From the NCBI GenBank assembly GCA_036700905.1, contig JAUBPT010000012.1: 8,346 nucleotides of DNA; one strand, given 5' to 3'. Numbering within the stretch: the first letter of the stretch is position 1; every line of letters begins with the position of its first letter. The stretch is from Microcoleus sp. S13_C3. GTDB lineage: Bacteria > Cyanobacteriota > Cyanobacteriia > Cyanobacteriales > Microcoleaceae. Below the pieces are notes generated by a model. It saw nothing but the letters and a program-made list of their open reading frames with translations, was not told the origin of the DNA and searched no databases. Of this stretch, positions 717-8,346 are shown piece by piece. Both the position numbers and the translations under genes were made by a program.

Positions 717-859
717 GGGTCTTCAGATTAGAACCTGACTGCCGGGAGAATCCCTAGCTCAGCCTGGTTCCCCGTGGAAGTCGTTTCCCGTTGGAGACGA
801 CGGCTGACTGCTAGTGAGCGGCCCCGGCGCACAGCCGGTAGTTTCCAATCTGATGACCC
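717..859 (-). promoter_or_regulatory. Candidate structured RNA element (143 nt, multi-helix, closed by a 12-bp helix); family not recognised and strand tentative
   Basis: The closing helix is GGGTC-t-TCAGATT (717-729) with AATCTGA-t-GACCC (847-859), 5+7 bp around one mismatch. Internal hairpins are 780-801 (GTCGT-t-TCC/GGA-g-ACGAC, loop CGTT), 824-838 (CCGGC/GCCGG) and 744-754 (GGGA/TCCC). The GC-rich content contrasts with the AT-rich flanks. The element sits between an SD-led micro-ORF and the 640-710 hairpin, upstream of the PCD gene on the minus strand. Confidence 0.3.
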
Positions 860-1293
860 ATGCGTTTACTACTTTCTATCATGGGCATCACCTCCAGGTT
901 TAGCTAAATGGCTTAATATTGGAACGCACATCACCTAAATACAAGATTTAAGGTGATGATTTGTGCGCTAGCCATTGCCAGCGTTACCGAAAGAACTTGC
1001 GTTCTGAGTATCATTCCAGTAGTCACAATTATCAGAATAACACAAGGAATTAGAAGTGGGGGGATGCAAATTGAGATTTTTGCAATATCGGGGGAAATTA
1101 CTGCTGCAGCAAGGTCTTTTATCGATCTCTACAGCAAGCGGGCGATCGTAGTTTGAGCCATTTGCCCATATGTTCTTCAGTATCCGGGCTGTGCGGTTAT
1201 CAGGTGCATGGCCACTCTGGGGGCTGGGAAAGGCCGATCGATTTCTTGCCAGATAGGGGATGAGAATTAAATAAAATCCACTTTTCATGACTG

Positions 1294-2658: not shown

Positions 2659-2790
2659 TTACGCAAATCTCCAAATGGATATAATTACAACGGACGTTGT
2701 TCTAGTCACAACTTCCCACCTCATAGCTCTGCTGTAGCATAAAATGAGTGGATTGTGAATATAATTTACGTTTCTTTACCGCTGATGATG

Positions 2791-2819
2791 ATTATAAAGG
2801 GAAATCTTTACAATAGCAA
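2791..2819 (-). promoter_or_regulatory. Putative sigma70-type promoter of psbD
   Basis: On the minus strand, TTGCTA (2819-2814), a 17-nt spacer and TATAAT (2796-2791). This predicts a 5' UTR of about 125 nt, which is plausible for psbD. There is no experimental support. Confidence 0.45.
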
Positions 2820-2879
2820 GAGCGAATTTTAAGTTTTGAGTAAGTTGGTCGTTCTGACGGGCAAGGCAATAGATAAACT

Positions 2880-3195
2880 GGGTTTCGGAGCGATCGGGCA
2901 ATTGCTCAAAGCCGGAAAATGATTGAGCAACCGGGTTTCTCTCTCAATCAAGTATGAGAGAATCCGGGTTTCGGAGCGATCGGGCGATCGCTCAAAGCCG
3001 GAAAATGATTGAGCAACCGGGTTTCTCTCTCAATCAAGTATGAGAGAATCCGGGTTTCGGAGCGATCGGGCGATCGCTCAAAGCCGGAAAATGATTGAGC
3101 AACCGGGTTTCTCTCTCCATCAAGTATGAGAGAAGCCGGGTTTCGGAGCGATCGGGCAATTGCTGAGCATGAAAATGATTGAGAAACCGCTGGTT
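2880..3195. repeat. Tandem array of an 86-bp unit, three full copies plus one diverged partial copy
   Basis: Copies start at 2880, 2966, 3052 and 3138, an exact 86-bp phase. Copies 1-3 differ at only 2-4 positions. Copy 4 decays after about 27 nt. Each unit holds two hairpins, TTGCTCAA-n13-TTGAGCAA and TCTCTCA-n8-TGAGAGA, two CCGGGTTTC motifs, and a HIP1 GCGATCGC site in copies 2-3. Confidence 0.92.
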
Positions 3196-3588
3196 AAAAA
3201 CTAGAGATTGCTAGCGATCGACATTTTGAGTGAATTTAGCACCCAGAGGCTAAACGACAAGCCCCCTATTCCCTCAACCTAGTGGGGAATTACTTTTTTC
3301 AATCAAAATCCGCCTCAATGATTCAACAAAAATGTTGTCTTGGCTGTCATATTCGGTAAAGAACTGCTTACGATTGGGCGTTTTACGATTTGGCGTTTGC
3401 GGTGGCTTTACCTGTAATCATTTTAGGTTAAATCCTATAGATTTAACTAGGTTTGTAACAAACTGTTACGAACCCGCAAGACTTAGGAACTGTCACAAGC
3501 GCTTTAGGGTGGTCTAGCCCCACAGCATTACCCACCAACTAAACGATAAACATCGGAACATCTGGACGTTTTAGTTGCCAACTTAAAT

Positions 3589-3714
3589 AAGCTGTGGAGC
3601 ATTTAAACCAGTAACGAGGCTAGTAGGGTGCGTCATTCGCGAACCCTTACGCTGAAACGGAAAACCTTAGATGCTGACGCACCTTACGCAAGTCCTTTAA
3701 ATGCCGAACAGCTT
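3589..3714. repeat. Nested inverted-repeat element immediately 3' of the STAND NTPase gene
   Basis: The outer arms are AAGCTGTGGAGCATTTAAA (3589-3607) and TTTAAATGCCGAACAGCTT (3696-3714), 7+9 bp around a 3x3 internal loop. The inner arms are GTAGGGTGCGTCA (3623-3635) and TGACGCACCTTAC (3675-3687), 13 bp with one G-U. The element starts 12 nt beyond the stop codon at 3726. No U-tract follows on the minus strand. Confidence 0.7.
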
Positions 3715-3725
3715 AATTGGACAGC

Positions 3726-5744
3726 TTACTCGACAGCACCTAAAGCTTTTAGCAAGGATTTTTGCCCTTGAGTTAAACCTGTAACGCCCTTGATATTCAT
3801 GCCTTCATAAATTCTTGAAGGGGAGAGATTTTTTCCATACTTATCCATTTCAACAGTTGAAAATTCAATGGTTTGTTCGCGGCCATCTCTAACTAAATTA
3901 TGACTATTTTCTATGGGTGTACTAAAAACTGATTTGGCCAAATTAGATCCAGAAAAGTTTACTTGGTACAGATTAATACCCCTCATATCTGCTTGCCAAA
4001 TAGTGATATCAGAAAAATCAGCGCCCGTTAAATCTAGTTGAAGTTGACATAATAAATTGAAGATATTACCAGCCCCATATCCGGGTGCTACACCCTGCTC
4101 TGCTAATTTAATTAAAATGTAATTGAGTTTTTCCGCTAAGTTTTCGGTGGTGTTGTACGTAACTAGGAGTCGGGAAATTAAAGGCGTAACAATGGCGCTA
4201 ATTTGATTTTTTCTGACCGACTCTTCGGCTGTAGCTTTAATCAGAGCATAGTTTTGAAGAAAAGGAAACAAGGAACAAGAGGATGTAGAACTATTGCACT
4301 CTTCTATAGTAATTTCTTGGTAGAGTTGCTCAATTATTTTTTCTGTGACATAATCTCTGATTAATGGCTGCTGAGTGAAGCCAAAAATACTTTTTTCCGG
4401 GACTTGAATTGCGGCTTTTTCAATTAGAGAGCGCCACTGGAGAGATTCTAAGCTTTCTAATAATTCTGCCTGGAAAACTGGCGGGACGATATCATTTAGA
4501 AGTTCTGTAGGCAAAACTGGTTCTCGGTTAATGGCTAACCAGTAAATAATTTGTTTCTCTATCGGAGATAAGCGATTAAATTGTTCATCTAACCAAAGGC
4601 GAATGCCATTAAAAATAGTTTCTTCTTGTTCAAAGAAATCTCGAATATTTCCCGAAAATAAATCTTGTATGGAACTCGCTGCTATTTTTAAAGCTATAGG
4701 ATTACCTTGGTAGCATTTTATTAGTTCCGCTTCTTCAGCAGGGGTTCCTATTAAAGACTTAAGTTTGAGGATTTCCTTGGCTGCGACTGGTGCTAAACCT
4801 TGCAGTTGCAAGCATCGGACGGGTAAAGTTTCTCCGGTTAAAGATGCAATTTCTCTCGCTTTTTCTCTGCTGACAATTAGCACGCAACTTTGGTGATTGG
4901 TTTCAGCAATTTGTCTCAGAAGTTGGCTGTAGTTAGAGAATCCCTCGCGGTAAGTGCCTGCATAGCTACCACTCTGGAAAAGGAAGTCTAAATCATCAAG
5001 GATAATCAGACACCGATGCTGCTGTAAATACTTGATGATAAGAGAGATGCGTTCGCCTACAGCCTGGGGTAAATCGGTAGTTTGATCCTGTGATAAAAAT
5101 TGGATAATTTTAGCTAATTCTTCGGGTAAAGGTGAACTATATTGCAGGCTTTTCCAGATGACAAATTCAAATTCACCTTGAATTTCTTCTGCTAACTTTA
5201 CCGATAAAGCAGTTTTGCCAATCCCGCCCATACCGATCAGGGTAATTAAGCGGCAACGATCTTGTAAAATCCAATGTTTAAGGGTAGCTAATTCTTGAGT
5301 ACGGCCGTAGAAAATAGAAACGTCGATCGCCTCTGATAAATTGTGGTGGGTTTTTGTTACTAAGGAAGGATTTGGGAAGGCGATCGCTTGTTCCTCTGGA
5401 TAACGTTTTAAGCCCAAAGCTTCCCAAAGGTGACAATTAGCCCAACAATCGGGCAAATTTGGTGATGTGGTTTTCGGTGTTTTATCTGGAGACGGGCGTG
5501 TACATGATTCAAGGATTGAGTGAATATTGCGTTTTGTGACTTGAGTTCCCAATGCCAGAGAAATTGTTCGCCATAATTGGGAACCGATATCTTTTAAGTA
5601 GTCGGCATCGTATCCTGATGTATCCGCCATGTTTTGATAAGACTGTCCTTGCCAAGATTGGCGGAATACTAGGTCTTGAACGTCGTTTAAGTGGCCTGGT
5701 TTGAGTAGGGTGTCTAAAATTGCTAAGGCTTCTTCGAGAGTCAT
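3726..5744 (-). CDS. STAND NTPase of the NB-ARC (AP-ATPase) type, with an N-terminal HTH-like domain and a C-terminal pentapeptide-repeat stub
   Basis: Walker A is GMGGIGKT (nt 5211-5234), preceded by FYGRTQEL. Walker B is LIILDDLD (about 4986-5009). VLIVSREK provides the sensor-I-like Arg, and GNPIALKIAA is the GxP motif. A winged-helix-like IYWLAINREPV follows. The pentapeptide-like run is DLTGADFSDITIWQADMRGINLYQVNFSGSNLAKSVF. The maximal ORF starts at GTG 5795 (689 aa). I prefer ATG 5744 (MTLEEALAILD, 672 aa) because, as I recall, related cyanobacterial proteins begin this way. Confidence 0.9.
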   Translation of the reverse strand: MTLEEALAILDTLLKPGHLNDVQDLVFRQSWQGQSYQNMADTSGYDADYLKDIGSQLWRTISLALGTQVTKRNIHSILESCTRPSPDKTPKTTSPNLPDCWANCHLWEALGLKRYPEEQAIAFPNPSLVTKTHHNLSEAIDVSIFYGRTQELATLKHWILQDRCRLITLIGMGGIGKTALSVKLAEEIQGEFEFVIWKSLQYSSPLPEELAKIIQFLSQDQTTDLPQAVGERISLIIKYLQQHRCLIILDDLDFLFQSGSYAGTYREGFSNYSQLLRQIAETNHQSCVLIVSREKAREIASLTGETLPVRCLQLQGLAPVAAKEILKLKSLIGTPAEEAELIKCYQGNPIALKIAASSIQDLFSGNIRDFFEQEETIFNGIRLWLDEQFNRLSPIEKQIIYWLAINREPVLPTELLNDIVPPVFQAELLESLESLQWRSLIEKAAIQVPEKSIFGFTQQPLIRDYVTEKIIEQLYQEITIEECNSSTSSCSLFPFLQNYALIKATAEESVRKNQISAIVTPLISRLLVTYNTTENLAEKLNYILIKLAEQGVAPGYGAGNIFNLLCQLQLDLTGADFSDITIWQADMRGINLYQVNFSGSNLAKSVFSTPIENSHNLVRDGREQTIEFSTVEMDKYGKNLSPSRIYEGMNIKGVTGLTQGQKSLLKALGAVE

Positions 5745-6058
5745 TAGCTGTGACTGTAAAACAGTGACTAAGTAATTACTCTTATAGACTATCACTTTTT
5801 CTGACTCTTGTTACTTTTTTTTACTTTAGTTATTAAATCTTCATATAAAATTCTGGCCTTTTCTGACTTTTTCCCACTGTGAGGGCTGAGGTGAGAAGGT
5901 TATTGTGTAACTACGAACTAAAGGACTCGTGAGCATAAGGTAAGTATGAAAAAAATCTGTAAATTGCCAACGATGTAACACCTTCTCTTATCACGAAAAC
6001 TTTGGAAATTAGTATCTAGTCACTAAATTAGCAACCTATCATTCAGAGAGGAACTGAA

Positions 6059-7234
6059 ATGTTCACCCATAAACCTCCAAAATCTCCATACAATATTCTT
6101 TCTTTTGACGGTGGCGTAATTCGTGGTCTTTTAACGGCGGTTTTGCTAGAAAAGCTAGAAGAAGAGCTACAGGAAAAGAATCCCGAAAAGGAATTAAAAG
6201 ATTACTTTGATATCATTGCCGGAACTTCTTCTGGCAGTCTCATTGCTTGCGGAATTGCTAGGGGATTTTCAGCCAAAAGGATTAAGAGTTTTTTTCAGGA
6301 ATATGGGCTCAAAATTTTCCCACCCTTAAAAGAAACTTTGACCAGCTTAATCTGGCGGTTAGTCAATACAGAGATGGATTTCAGTGAATTTGACACTTTT
6401 AATATCCTTTCTCAAAACCGTGAAGATGCCAAGAAATTTATGACTCAACCCGTCTATGACGGAAAAGGTTTGGAAGATGTACTCCAGCATATATTTGGCT
6501 ACCAGGAATTTGGTGAGTTGCCACAATTAGTGCTTGTGCCAAGCTACGATGTCTATAATCACGATGCTGTAATCTTCAAAAACAACAAAGAAGAGTTTAA
6601 AACGATGCCTGTGTGGGAAATTTGTAGGGCATCCGCCGCCGCACCTGTTGCTTTTCCTGCTCACGTCACGCACAATCAGGGATTCCTTAAATCTATTAAG
6701 TTGAAGGAAAATAAAGCTGAAGAAGCAGGGGAAGAACCAATCATAAAAGTAGGTAGAGAAGGTATCCCTTTGATTGATGGTGGTGTTGTTGCCAATAACC
6801 CTGTACTTTGTGCGATCGCAGAGGGTCGCAAACAATATAACACATTTCCTTCTGTAGTCGCTTCTTTTGGTTCGGGTTGGACTTTGAATCGGATTACAGT
6901 TCGAGAAGCTCAAGGTTGGGGTAGCTTGAATTGGGGAAGCGTGCTAAGGAATATCCCTTTGATGGATGTATTTTCTGATGGTTCAAGCGATGCTACGGAT
7001 TATATTGCTAAACAATTGCTGCTTGAGGGAGAGAGTGAATATTTCCGCTTTCAGCCTCTTCTGAAAAAGAATGTTAGTGCTTTTAGTGCCGCTCCCGATA
7101 ATCTCGATTTATTGGTTGAGATAGCAGAAGAATTTCTTAAAACTAAGGAATGCAAGGATGATATGAGCAAGCTTGTTAAATCCCTGACATCGCATCATTC
7201 CTTGTTGGATTCTGTGGTGGAGGCAATCACCTAA
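6059..7234 (+). CDS. Patatin-like phospholipase (391 aa), predicted cytoplasmic
   Basis: The oxyanion-hole motif is DGGVIRG (aa 17-23). The nucleophile elbow is G-T-S-S-G with Ser57 (nt 6227-6229). The ASAAAPVAFP block is present, as is the catalytic Asp in IDGGVVANNP (Asp240, nt 6776-6778). The SD AGAGAGGAA ends about 7 nt before the ATG. There is no N-terminal signal peptide. Confidence 0.92.
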   Translation: MFTHKPPKSPYNILSFDGGVIRGLLTAVLLEKLEEELQEKNPEKELKDYFDIIAGTSSGSLIACGIARGFSAKRIKSFFQEYGLKIFPPLKETLTSLIWRLVNTEMDFSEFDTFNILSQNREDAKKFMTQPVYDGKGLEDVLQHIFGYQEFGELPQLVLVPSYDVYNHDAVIFKNNKEEFKTMPVWEICRASAAAPVAFPAHVTHNQGFLKSIKLKENKAEEAGEEPIIKVGREGIPLIDGGVVANNPVLCAIAEGRKQYNTFPSVVASFGSGWTLNRITVREAQGWGSLNWGSVLRNIPLMDVFSDGSSDATDYIAKQLLLEGESEYFRFQPLLKKNVSAFSAAPDNLDLLVEIAEEFLKTKECKDDMSKLVKSLTSHHSLLDSVVEAIT

Positions 7235-7430: not shown

Positions 7431-8346
7431 ATGGCTACTTCTGATATAAAATCTGGTCAATTGGATAACAATGACATTATTTTTCCAGTTCCCCCTGAGC
7501 TTAGTGGCTTCACGCGGGCTGATGAATATGACTTGAATACAGATGCGATCGGGGAAGCACTCAAGCTTGCTCTTACAACTACAGATCCAAACAGCAAATA
7601 TGATCCGTTTCTGCAAGTTATAGATGTCAATACGGGTCGGGTGGTTGCTGATTCAGACGATGGATCTTCAGAGAGTCTAAACTCATTGATTGAAGCCGGT
7701 CAGCCTGCAGGAAATATTGATTTAGTTGACGATCCGGCAATTCCTAATTCTTTGACAATTGACGGCAGCGCCAAGTACAAAGTCCGCGTCACCAGCGTGA
7801 ATTCATTTACCAGCTCGTCGTCTACTTATCCCTACAGTTTGCGGGCCAGCGTTCCTAATGGTAATGTTAGTTTAGTTGCGAGAGGTAGCAACTTCAGCAG
7901 CAGCCCTCTAACGGGCAACTCTATTACCTTCGCTGGTAAATTGGAGAGCGCCAAAGACTTTACTTTTCCGGTCAAGGCTCCCAGTATTGGCAACACACTT
8001 GCGGATGAATTTCAAGTAAAAATATCCTCGGTGGGCGAACCGATCAAAATTTCCCTCAGCAGCACGACAAATGGCTTTGACCCTTATGTGGAAGTTGTCA
8101 ACGCTAATACTGGGGAAGTTGTTGACTTCAATGATGACGGTGGCGGTGGTAAGAATGCGCTGCTTTCTGTCCCGTACCAAGCAAATACTGAATACAGAAT
8201 CCGTGTCAGCAGTAAAACTGCATTAGCTTCCTCTGCTGATTACAGCTTACAGGTCAGCACTTCTTCTGGCAATACTGTCACTTTGACCCCCCGCAGTGGT
8301 GACACCGGATCATCGTCGAACAGTGGCGGTAACGGAACATCGACAG
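7431..8346 (+). CDS. Protein with two tandem pre-peptidase C-terminal (PPC)-like domains; 305 aa are seen and it continues past the right window edge
   Basis: This ORF is not in the supplied track because it is open-ended. ATG 7431 is the first start after an in-frame TAA at 7422, and GAGG lies 10 nt upstream. The frame stays open to 8346. Two homologous modules of about 120 aa are visible. The first runs DPFLQVIDVNTGRVVADSDDG...KYKVRVTS...YPYSLRAS. The second runs DPYVEVVNANTGEVVDFNDDGGGG...EYRIRVSS...DYSLQVS. This is the D-P-[YF]-h-x-h-h-[DN]-x-x-G-x-h-h-x-x-[ND]-D-D ... Y-x-h-x-V-x-S pattern of PPC/collagenase-type beta-sandwich domains. A Ser/Gly-rich linker follows. Confidence 0.8.
   Translation, partial: MATSDIKSGQLDNNDIIFPVPPELSGFTRADEYDLNTDAIGEALKLALTTTDPNSKYDPFLQVIDVNTGRVVADSDDGSSESLNSLIEAGQPAGNIDLVDDPAIPNSLTIDGSAKYKVRVTSVNSFTSSSSTYPYSLRASVPNGNVSLVARGSNFSSSPLTGNSITFAGKLESAKDFTFPVKAPSIGNTLADEFQVKISSVGEPIKISLSSTTNGFDPYVEVVNANTGEVVDFNDDGGGGKNALLSVPYQANTEYRIRVSSKTALASSADYSLQVSTSSGNTVTLTPRSGDTGSSSNSGGNGTST

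Follow-up and report, generated by a model that had tools for sequence, protein, structure and literature searches.

A divergent gene pair and its shared control region

The stretch of DNA analysed here, referred to as the window, comprises 8,346 nucleotides from the chromosome of Microcoleus sp. S13_C3. Its main subject is a divergent gene pair that encodes a STAND NTPase with an NB-ARC core and, at its N-terminus, a helix-turn-helix (HTH) domain on one side and a patatin-like acyl hydrolase on the other. The two genes are separated by a common control region containing a constrained non-coding block, on which the NTPase is tentatively proposed to act as a transcription switch. The respective features are:

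3726..5744, (-): HTH-NB-ARC STAND NTPase gene, 672 aa from ATG (open reading frame (ORF), Pfam and AlphaFold2 model)
5745..6058, (.): divergent control region of both genes, 314 bp
5778..5880, (.): constrained non-coding block, 103 nt, NB-ARC-proximal, with T-rich repeat units
6059..7234, (+): stand-alone patatin-like acyl hydrolase gene, 391 aa (ORF and Pfam)

A first-pass annotation had placed an NB-ARC NTPase and a patatin-like lipase at these positions, and both coordinates and identities proved to be right. The product of 3726..5795 (-) matched the Pfam NB-ARC profile with 47.9 bits (cut-off 23.5) and also matched NACHT and Pentapeptide, and the product of 6059..7234 matched Patatin with 84.5 bits (cut-off 27.7). 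The NTPase motifs quoted in that annotation are likewise present, namely the Walker A motif GMGGIGKT at residues 188-195 (window 5211-5234), the Walker B motif LIILDDLD at residues 263-270 (window 4986-5009) and GNPIAL at residue 364, all numbered for a protein of 689 aa that starts with the GTG at 5795. According to sequence comparisons, the gene probably starts with the ATG at 5744 rather than with this GTG, since most public gene calls choose the former, and since the latter is part of a conserved non-coding motif and does not stand in frame in the orthologue of Planktothrix. The Walker A lysine K194 becomes K177 in the resulting numbering of 672 aa. Of the control region of 263-314 bp described previously, the value of 314 bp is thus the likelier one, and 263 bp belongs to the GTG start. 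The claim that both genes are AT-richer than the psbD side of the window was also borne out, as the GC content at third codon positions (GC3) is 0.34 in the NB-ARC gene and 0.37 in the patatin gene, compared with 0.66 in psbD. Within the 21-kb locus, which has an overall GC content of 0.458, the two genes show the two lowest GC3 values.

The patatin carries the motif GTSSG at residues 55-59, including Ser57 (window 6221-6235), and the motif DGG at residues 240-242, including Asp240 (window 6776-6784). Both dyad motifs are invariant across 33 patatin homologues, and judged by its motifs the protein is a stand-alone acyl hydrolase, an autonomous Ser-Asp lipase. An intact dyad and an intact oxyanion hole had been reported for it; the dyad is indeed intact, but the oxyanion motif reads DGGVIRG (window 6107-6127) instead of the consensus DGGGxRG. 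The respective G20V exchange is fixed throughout the Microcoleus clade, DGGG is kept by the Planktothrix orthologues, and DGSG is found in Capilliphycus. The patatin family is widespread among cyanobacteria.

An AlphaFold2 model of the NB-ARC protein, built from a 44-sequence alignment, reached a mean predicted local distance difference test (pLDDT) value of 84. The protein can be divided into the following parts:

5499..5744, (-), residues 1-82: N-terminal HTH with five helices, LuxR/GerE or sigma-70 region 4 type fold
5361..5495, (-), residues 84-128: disordered linker, pLDDT <50 in both models, 0-24% identity to paralogues
4374..5348, (-), residues 133-457: STAND core of nucleotide-binding, helical and winged-helix domains (NBD-HD-WHD), from Pfam, motifs, AlphaFold2 and Foldseek
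3855..4367, (-): helical spacer (residues 460-567), then a pentapeptide beta-solenoid stub (residues ~575-630), from Pfam Pentapeptide and the AlphaFold2 model

When predicted alone, the HTH domain (residues 1-82) reached a pLDDT of ~90 over its five helices. Nearly all of the top 50 Foldseek matches of this domain in the PDB were LuxR/GerE DNA-binding domains or sigma-70 region 4, the former including the DosR-DNA complex, ComA, GerE, VqmA, LiaR and EvgA. A HTH of the DNA-binding type is thus joined to a STAND core at the level of the fold only. The top Foldseek matches of the core were ZAR1, Apaf-1, CED-4 and NRC resistosome subunits (E = 1e-10 to 1e-12), by which the modelled core is a genuine AP-ATPase/NB-ARC module with a complete NBD-HD-WHD arrangement. 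The C-terminus behind the spacer consists of the ~55-residue pentapeptide stub and a tail of ~40 residues only, and neither a WD40 nor a TPR sensor was found beyond the stub in the Pfam scan or in the model.

In the precomputed Pfam annotation the NB-ARC protein carries PF26355 (HTH_VMAP-M9). It thereby belongs to a family composed of HTH_VMAP-M9, NACHT/NB-ARC and, usually, WD40, which is very large in cyanobacteria (>1,900 matches at E < 1e-10) and is named alr2800-like or 'Hat/HatR' by different sources. Hundreds of these proteins are 42-53% identical to the NB-ARC protein over HTH and NTPase, and the HTH is nearly uniform among them. WD40 repeats are present in most paralogues and missing here. 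Some members of the family have a different N-terminal sequence instead of the HTH, which was taken, by inspection alone, for a second HTH type. The VMAP-M middle modules were described by Kaur et al. 2020 (PMC7159879), and up to 23 NACHT paralogues per cyanobacterial genome have been reported (10.1101/2022.07.19.500537).

Conservation, decay and recombination of the pair

The loci retrieved for comparison are cited by L numbers, with L001 being contig JAUBPQ010000008 of assembly GCA_036700825.1, on which coordinates equal those of the window plus 3942. Pairs with both the NB-ARC gene and the patatin gene intact were identified in the following groups:

Microcoleus spp. (L001-L004, L084-L089): nothing between the genes
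USR001 (L094): NB-ARC protein of 571 aa, nothing between the genes
ZHEN15 metagenome (L091): nothing between the genes
Planktothrix mougeotii (L107, L108): DM9 gene between the two
Planktothrix tepida (L095): 190-aa and 175-aa ORFs between the two

The Microcoleus-type loci share a common synteny from psbD to UPF0367/ABC, and the outer flanks differ in the Planktothrix group, where recR, gltB and S8 peptidase genes or CHASE2 cyclase and CHAT-TPR genes are found. The idea that the adjacency is conserved and not an accident of a single genome therefore holds for the Microcoleus species, USR001, ZHEN15, P. tepida and P. mougeotii, but not beyond this lineage.

Each partner also decays independently of the other. 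The NB-ARC gene is frameshifted in Planktothrix PCC 11201, and in five assemblies (L006, L090, L100, L113, L114) its product is truncated to 311-332 aa. The truncated allele retains the HTH, the linker and the NBD's first half. Purifying selection acts on this allele (Nd 12, Sd 15, binomial p = 1.5e-4), which suggests that the HTH part works on its own. Coordinates of this allele are L006 8293-9291, L090 6299-7234, L113 5251-6201 and L100 3994-4938. On the other side, in L096, the second genome with the P. tepida NB-ARC protein, an insert of ~1.19 kb interrupts the patatin gene precisely at the catalytic GTS codon (L096 4722-7011), and the neighbouring NB-ARC gene is 100% identical to the copy beside the intact patatin. 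The insert contains an ORF of 370 aa, judged by eye to be an IS630-type transposase; an intron was considered and rejected, given this ORF and the lack of an Rfam match. In Capilliphycus the patatin gene has no NB-ARC gene beside it, and the ORFs upstream of it were read by eye as fragments of an ISL3-type transposase. Conversely, an orthologue of the NB-ARC protein with 69% identity lacks a patatin and has a VOMI protein gene as its divergent neighbour.

The ratio of nonsynonymous to synonymous divergence (omega) ranges from 0.25 to 0.5 for both genes, which corresponds to fairly fast evolution, and the patatin alleles are unusually diverse, possibly as a result of balancing or diversifying selection. 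Where the NB-ARC gene is truncated or missing, the omega of the patatin is 0.24-0.33 and thus the same as or lower than in the presence of an intact pair. Moreover, synonymous divergence (dS) is discordant between the two genes: it amounts to 0.038 for the NB-ARC gene and 0.457 for the patatin gene between L001 and L084, and to 0.077 and 0.346, respectively, between L006 and L113, whereas the order is reversed between L001 and L094 (patatin 0.13, NB-ARC 0.32). Such discordance implies that the alleles of the two genes recombine independently, with breakpoints in the intergenic region. No segment common to both proteins, such as an adaptor or amyloid motif, was detected, as Smith-Waterman scores did not exceed those of shuffled controls.

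The genomic context of the patatin family was examined with one genome per species, yielding 558 relatives, of which the best 80 loci were kept. A STAND profile made from 120 homologues and run on all ORFs of these 80 loci detected this NTPase only beside the closest patatin orthologues (L004, L005, L006); an unrelated SARP-kinase-NB-ARC-TPR gene lies 2.8 kb from the patatin in a metagenome-assembled genome (MAG) of Anaerolineae. For 72 more distant homologues of the patatin, the genes directly upstream and downstream were scanned in bulk with Pfam and belonged to heterogeneous, mostly housekeeping families, including SMODS/DncV genes of a true CBASS system in two cases and a nearby P-loop/STAND-type NTPase in two cases at most. 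A patatin paralogue of Microcoleus with 44% identity is located between the ADH and ArgJ genes. Because the neighbours of the distant homologues and of this paralogue are so heterogeneous, the family can be regarded as stand-alone overall. For the patatin to be maintained, no NB-ARC protein and no signal from a cyclic nucleotide is required. In the Ignavibacteriaceae MAG of L068 (820-3867), a gene for a KAP-family P-loop NTPase with TPR repeats begins 13 bp 3' of a distant patatin on the same strand, possibly forming a separate operon that is unrelated to the cyanobacterial pair. Patatin searches of plasmid and phage collections were uninformative, with matches to three cyanobacterial plasmids and one Wolbachia phage WO only.

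A constrained block with exchangeable genes opposite

The T-rich repeat units of the block at 5778-5880 include ATCACTTTTTCTGACT (5791-5806), GGCCTTTTCTGACT (5855-5868) and GACTTTTTCC (5865-5874). The unit ATCAC[CT]TTTTCT[GT]ACT occurs twice, 62-63 bp apart, and the Microcoleus block additionally holds GGCCTTTTCT-GACTTTTTCC. The divergence of the block (K) is 0.115-0.127 at a dS of 0.32-0.52 in the flanking genes, and 0.24 at a dS of 0.73 in the case of L092. Accordingly, the block diverges three to four times slower than the synonymous sites of the flanking genes, and it can be aligned as far as the Planktothrix clade, where dS is saturated.

The two-copy pattern of the unit was found in 11 of the 96 fetched loci, each time directly upstream of this NB-ARC orthogroup. 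A metagenome scan with the same motif returned ten stretches, consisting of three true orthologous regions and seven unrelated sequences, and thus contributed few further contexts. Scanning the intergenic region for promoters and terminators gave one site, which is no more than expected by chance. The block accompanies the NB-ARC gene whatever gene lies opposite, be it the patatin gene, a VOMI gene (L092, where the patatin is absent and the block retained), a DM9 gene (L096, L107), the 190-aa ORF (L095) or a ricin-B lectin gene (L098). The gene opposite the block is thus swapped among relatives. Since the start codons of these genes are located 39-110 nt past the block, their promoters probably overlap it.

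The ricin-B lectin gene of L098 (metagenome contig JFJP01014692.1, 690-3960) occupies the patatin position beside an NB-ARC gene with 80% identity. At this locus duplicated copies of the first unit, ATCACTTTTTCTKACTATTTT, flank an inserted cassette of 2.9 kb, which encodes a class-3 lipase (Lipase_3) of 590 aa and a protein of 167 aa that appeared by eye to be membrane-spanning. The NB-ARC gene of L098 is frameshifted by a 44-bp tandem duplication, which weakens the cassette as support for a recurrent lipase effector.

A related tandem, GACYTTTTYC or, with the preceding base, CGAC[CT]TTTT[CT]C, is present in two to three copies on the same strand and at an equal distance (-90 to -120) upstream of a second subfamily of NB-ARC paralogues, namely HTH-NB-ARC-WD40 proteins with 44-47% identity that are encoded on Nostoc plasmids and in one metagenome. 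At an exact 10-mer background of 0.034 per kb per strand, single matches are unremarkable and tandems at the same position are not; the comparison between the subfamilies is post hoc and involves two independent groups. CGACYTTTTYC tandems were located at L116 2389-2409, L117 ~2390-2411, L127 2389-2409 and L109 ~6890-6910, and in L116 and L117 the NB-ARC gene of the second subfamily is divergent from a giant gene for a Ca-binding or Ig-like exoprotein. No tandem repeat was found with the other paralogues of L124 (Acaryochloris, Ig-like neighbour) and L122 (subtilase neighbour). The tandem may represent a family-wide cis element, with a family-wide link to secreted proteins.

A candidate transcription switch and its alternatives

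Taken together, the data point, tentatively and at less than even confidence, to a STAND transcription switch that acts on the shared control region in the manner of XssQ or AfsR. In this proposal the STAND core would oligomerise upon nucleotide exchange and the protein would function as an NTP-dependent transcription factor with the N-terminal LuxR/sigma-r4-type HTH as its output domain. The switch would bind the T-rich repeat block ~45-130 nt upstream of the start codon of its own gene and from there would control its own promoter and the divergent one. The gene across the block would be interchangeable cargo: the patatin gene here, in Planktothrix a DM9 lectin-like gene with the patatin gene behind it, and in other cases a VOMI or ricin-B lectin gene. 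A transcriptional link is favoured because the HTH is the only output-type domain of the protein and is encoded beside a constrained block with interchangeable divergent genes. The analysis shows the domain anatomy, the fold class of the HTH, the conservation of pair and block, the exchange of the gene opposite and the separate decay of the partners, whereas DNA binding, the promoter controlled, the direction of regulation and the input signal are inferred. Conserved divergent gene pairs are typically pairs of a regulator and its target, a rule that reportedly goes back to Korbel et al. 2004.

Several observations weigh against such a switch. The Foldseek matches of the HTH reached probabilities of up to 0.99, yet all E-values were >= 0.07, which can be ascribed to the domain having only 65 residues, and folds resembling sigma-r4 can mediate protein contacts too. 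Hundreds of paralogues have an almost identical HTH, so that a shared partner or site fits better than gene-specific operators. The phased T-rich repeats might simply act as a promoter element of the curved-DNA or UP-like kind, or another regulator might bind there. The patatin gene of the Planktothrix clade is the second or third gene and has its own upstream region of 120-140 nt, and the independent recombination of the two genes described above counts on the same side. Finally, every instance of the pair traces to one ancestral juxtaposition, so that its retention provides only modest evidence of coupling.

The closest known system is XssQ (Slr5058) of Synechocystis PCC 6803, in which an N-terminal HTH is joined to NACHT; XssQ binds single or tandem sites in electrophoretic mobility shift assays and activates the xss genes, and its gene is divergent from the target gene xssP (PMC8205485). 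XssQ resembles the NB-ARC protein in being cyanobacterial, in carrying the HTH at the N-terminus ahead of a STAND NTPase, in lacking a large repeat sensor and in the divergent gene arrangement. It binds short single or tandem repeats and activates its divergent neighbour, whereas DNA binding by the NB-ARC protein is a proposal. XssQ differs in its NACHT and NCH2 domains, as compared with HTH_VMAP-M9, NB-ARC and pentapeptide repeats, and it works below a two-component system, no such partner being encoded nearby in the present case. Homology between the HTH domains was considered and rejected, since there is no detectable sequence homology and only a remote P-loop similarity; by sequence, XssQ is an analogue and not a relative. 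The AfsR/SARP-NB-ARC-TPR and MalT/GutR regulators likewise combine a STAND nucleotide switch with a DNA-binding domain. MalT uses the LuxR/GerE-type HTH fold found here, but at the C-terminus, AfsR has a SARP winged helix instead, and both possess large TPR/SUPR sensors that are absent from the NB-ARC protein. The NCBIfam AfsR match of the latter covers the P-loop only (15 bits, cut-off 1430). A true relationship exists with the HTH_VMAP-M9-NACHT/NB-ARC-WD40 (alr2800-like) family, from most members of which the NB-ARC protein is distinguished by the missing WD40 propeller, its small orthogroup, its own upstream block and its patatin or lectin neighbours.

Nearly as likely as the transcription switch, given the single juxtaposition and the dispensability of either gene, is that the two genes are not functionally coupled at all. 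They would then have been placed side by side once, in the ancestor of Microcoleus and Planktothrix, within a variable accessory region rich in exoproteins, and would not yet have been separated; the NB-ARC protein would be one of many cyanobacterial paralogues and the patatin an independent lipid hydrolase. Consistent with this, all pairs fall within one orthologous clade, the Microcoleus patatin paralogue with 44% identity and the 72 distant homologues lack STAND neighbours, and either gene occurs without the other, as in the NB-ARC orthologue with 69% identity and in Capilliphycus. Each partner is separately truncated, frameshifted or disrupted by an insertion sequence (IS) while the other remains under selection, recombination breakpoints fall between the genes, and with many NACHT paralogues per genome a chance adjacency somewhere in the genome has a probability of a few percent by a rough estimate. 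Against the absence of coupling count the survival of the pair despite reshuffled outer flanks and saturated synonymous sites, the Lipase_3 insertion of L098, which brought another lipase without homology to the patatin into this locus, and the lowest GC3 of the locus being common to both genes.

The first-pass annotation had favoured a split NLR-type module, in which an oligomer of the NB-ARC protein directly activates the patatin so that membranes are degraded in the course of abortive infection or allorecognition. Fungal NLRs often bear patatin effector domains, and in favour of this model the pair is conserved in one clade, the patatin matches the PADLOC model for CBASS-effector phospholipases strongly (1e-55), both genes evolve fairly fast (omega 0.25-0.5) with unusually diverse patatin alleles, a Lipase_3 cassette is present at the same locus in L098, and frequent loss is typical of defence genes. 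Nevertheless, the N-terminus, which in NLRs holds effectors or adaptors, is taken up by the HTH, no adaptor or amyloid-like motif is common to both proteins, and there is almost no sensor domain. The patatin is under purifying selection where the NB-ARC gene is truncated or absent (omega 0.24-0.33), the NB-ARC gene is intact where the patatin gene is disrupted by an IS element or absent, and the NB-ARC gene of L098 is itself frameshifted. Furthermore, the genes are divergent, with one or two other genes in between in Planktothrix. PADLOC yielded no significant match for the NB-ARC protein (best E = 0.002) and no defence system in the flanks, where only a generic ABC-ATPase similarity was noted; the surroundings of the pair are thus no defence island. 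A P-loop/STAND-type NTPase was seen near the patatin in two at most of the 72 distant relatives. The model predicts an adaptor or effector-recruiting N-terminus, a sensor, co-dependence of the partners and, ideally, a recurrent association of STAND proteins with patatins; as none of these was observed, direct activation at the protein level is considered improbable. The known pairs of an NLR and an adjacent effector that are coupled by amyloid motifs, HET-S/NWD2 and the bacterial BASS/Bell pairs (10.1101/2020.01.06.895854), resemble the present locus, as do the patatin NLRs of fungi, in that a NB-ARC/NACHT gene lies beside a lipase gene in a multicellular microbe. Unlike in HET-S/NWD2 and BASS/Bell, the genes studied here share no short motif, are divergent instead of tandem, and include a HTH at the N-terminus of the NLR.

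It is very improbable, moreover, that the patatin is an orphan effector of the CapV type, activated by a cyclic oligonucleotide from a CD-NTase encoded elsewhere, with the NB-ARC protein being irrelevant. CapV, the cGAMP-activated patatin of CBASS, shares the subfamily neighbourhood and the GxSxG/DGG dyad, the PADLOC match mentioned above extends over the full length of the patatin, the NCBIfam CBASS_lipase model gave 147.9 bits, and CapV structures are among the PDB sequence matches. However, this score is below the curated equivalog cut-off of 200, no CD-NTase is encoded within 10 kb on either side of the patatin gene, and SMODS/DncV genes adjoin only 2 of 72 relatives, which are overwhelmingly stand-alone. 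Among PDB sequences the plant patatin Pat17 matches best, over nearly the full length, and CapV-type proteins come next, matching mainly in the N-terminal part. Membership of the patatin in a CBASS system was rejected on account of the score below cut-off, the missing CD-NTase and the stand-alone relatives.

An extended form of the transcription switch would describe a new kind of system of 'transcriptional NLR' cassettes in filamentous cyanobacteria, with a constant HTH-NB-ARC switch and a block that serves both as operator and as recombination-prone docking site, into which antagonistic cargo is swapped and from which it is switched on when the NB-ARC protein is triggered. The cargo would comprise lipases (patatin or class-3) and lectins (DM9, VOMI or ricin), and the L098 cassette with its duplicated flanking units would be a snapshot of a cargo swap. 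This extension, including the cargo so defined, is held to be unlikely.

Filamentous cyanobacteria contain dozens of HTH-NACHT/NB-ARC paralogues, which are commonly taken for NLRs of immunity or cell death; to our knowledge, none of them has an established function. The protein families, the architecture (Pfam HTH_VMAP-M9; Kaur et al. 2020) and the precedents for HTH-STAND regulators are already known. New, if the transcription switch is real, would be a transcriptional output for an abundant cyanobacterial family, a candidate operator and a swappable lipase or lectin cargo. The operator-like repeat would then provide a concrete handle on the whole paralogue family, and NLR-type switches would reach their outputs via transcription and not via fused effectors. 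If the pair reflects inherited synteny only, the finding is an ordinary one and a caution against taking a STAND gene next to a lipase gene for a defence system.

The remaining genes of the window are:

287-568, (-): pterin-4a-carbinolamine dehydratase gene
1600-2658, (-): psbD
7431..8346, (+): 5' part of a repeat-rich PPC-like exoprotein gene, running past the end of the window (335 aa on the full contig)

The exoprotein gene at 7431 does not encode a CD-NTase. It opens a series of repeat-rich genes of the secreted type 3' of the patatin gene (7431-8346; L001 11373-19149), which includes the PPC-like protein with terminal tandem NLNTGTSTA repeats, several HemolysinCabind/RTX proteins, DUF4347 and Big domains, and whose content varies among Microcoleus strains. 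The tRNA and Rfam scans of the window returned no match. The two regions of ~1 kb each that flank psbD (569-1599 and 2659-3725) are without a convincing ORF and without an Rfam match, and one public annotation places a gene of 66 aa at window 856-1056.

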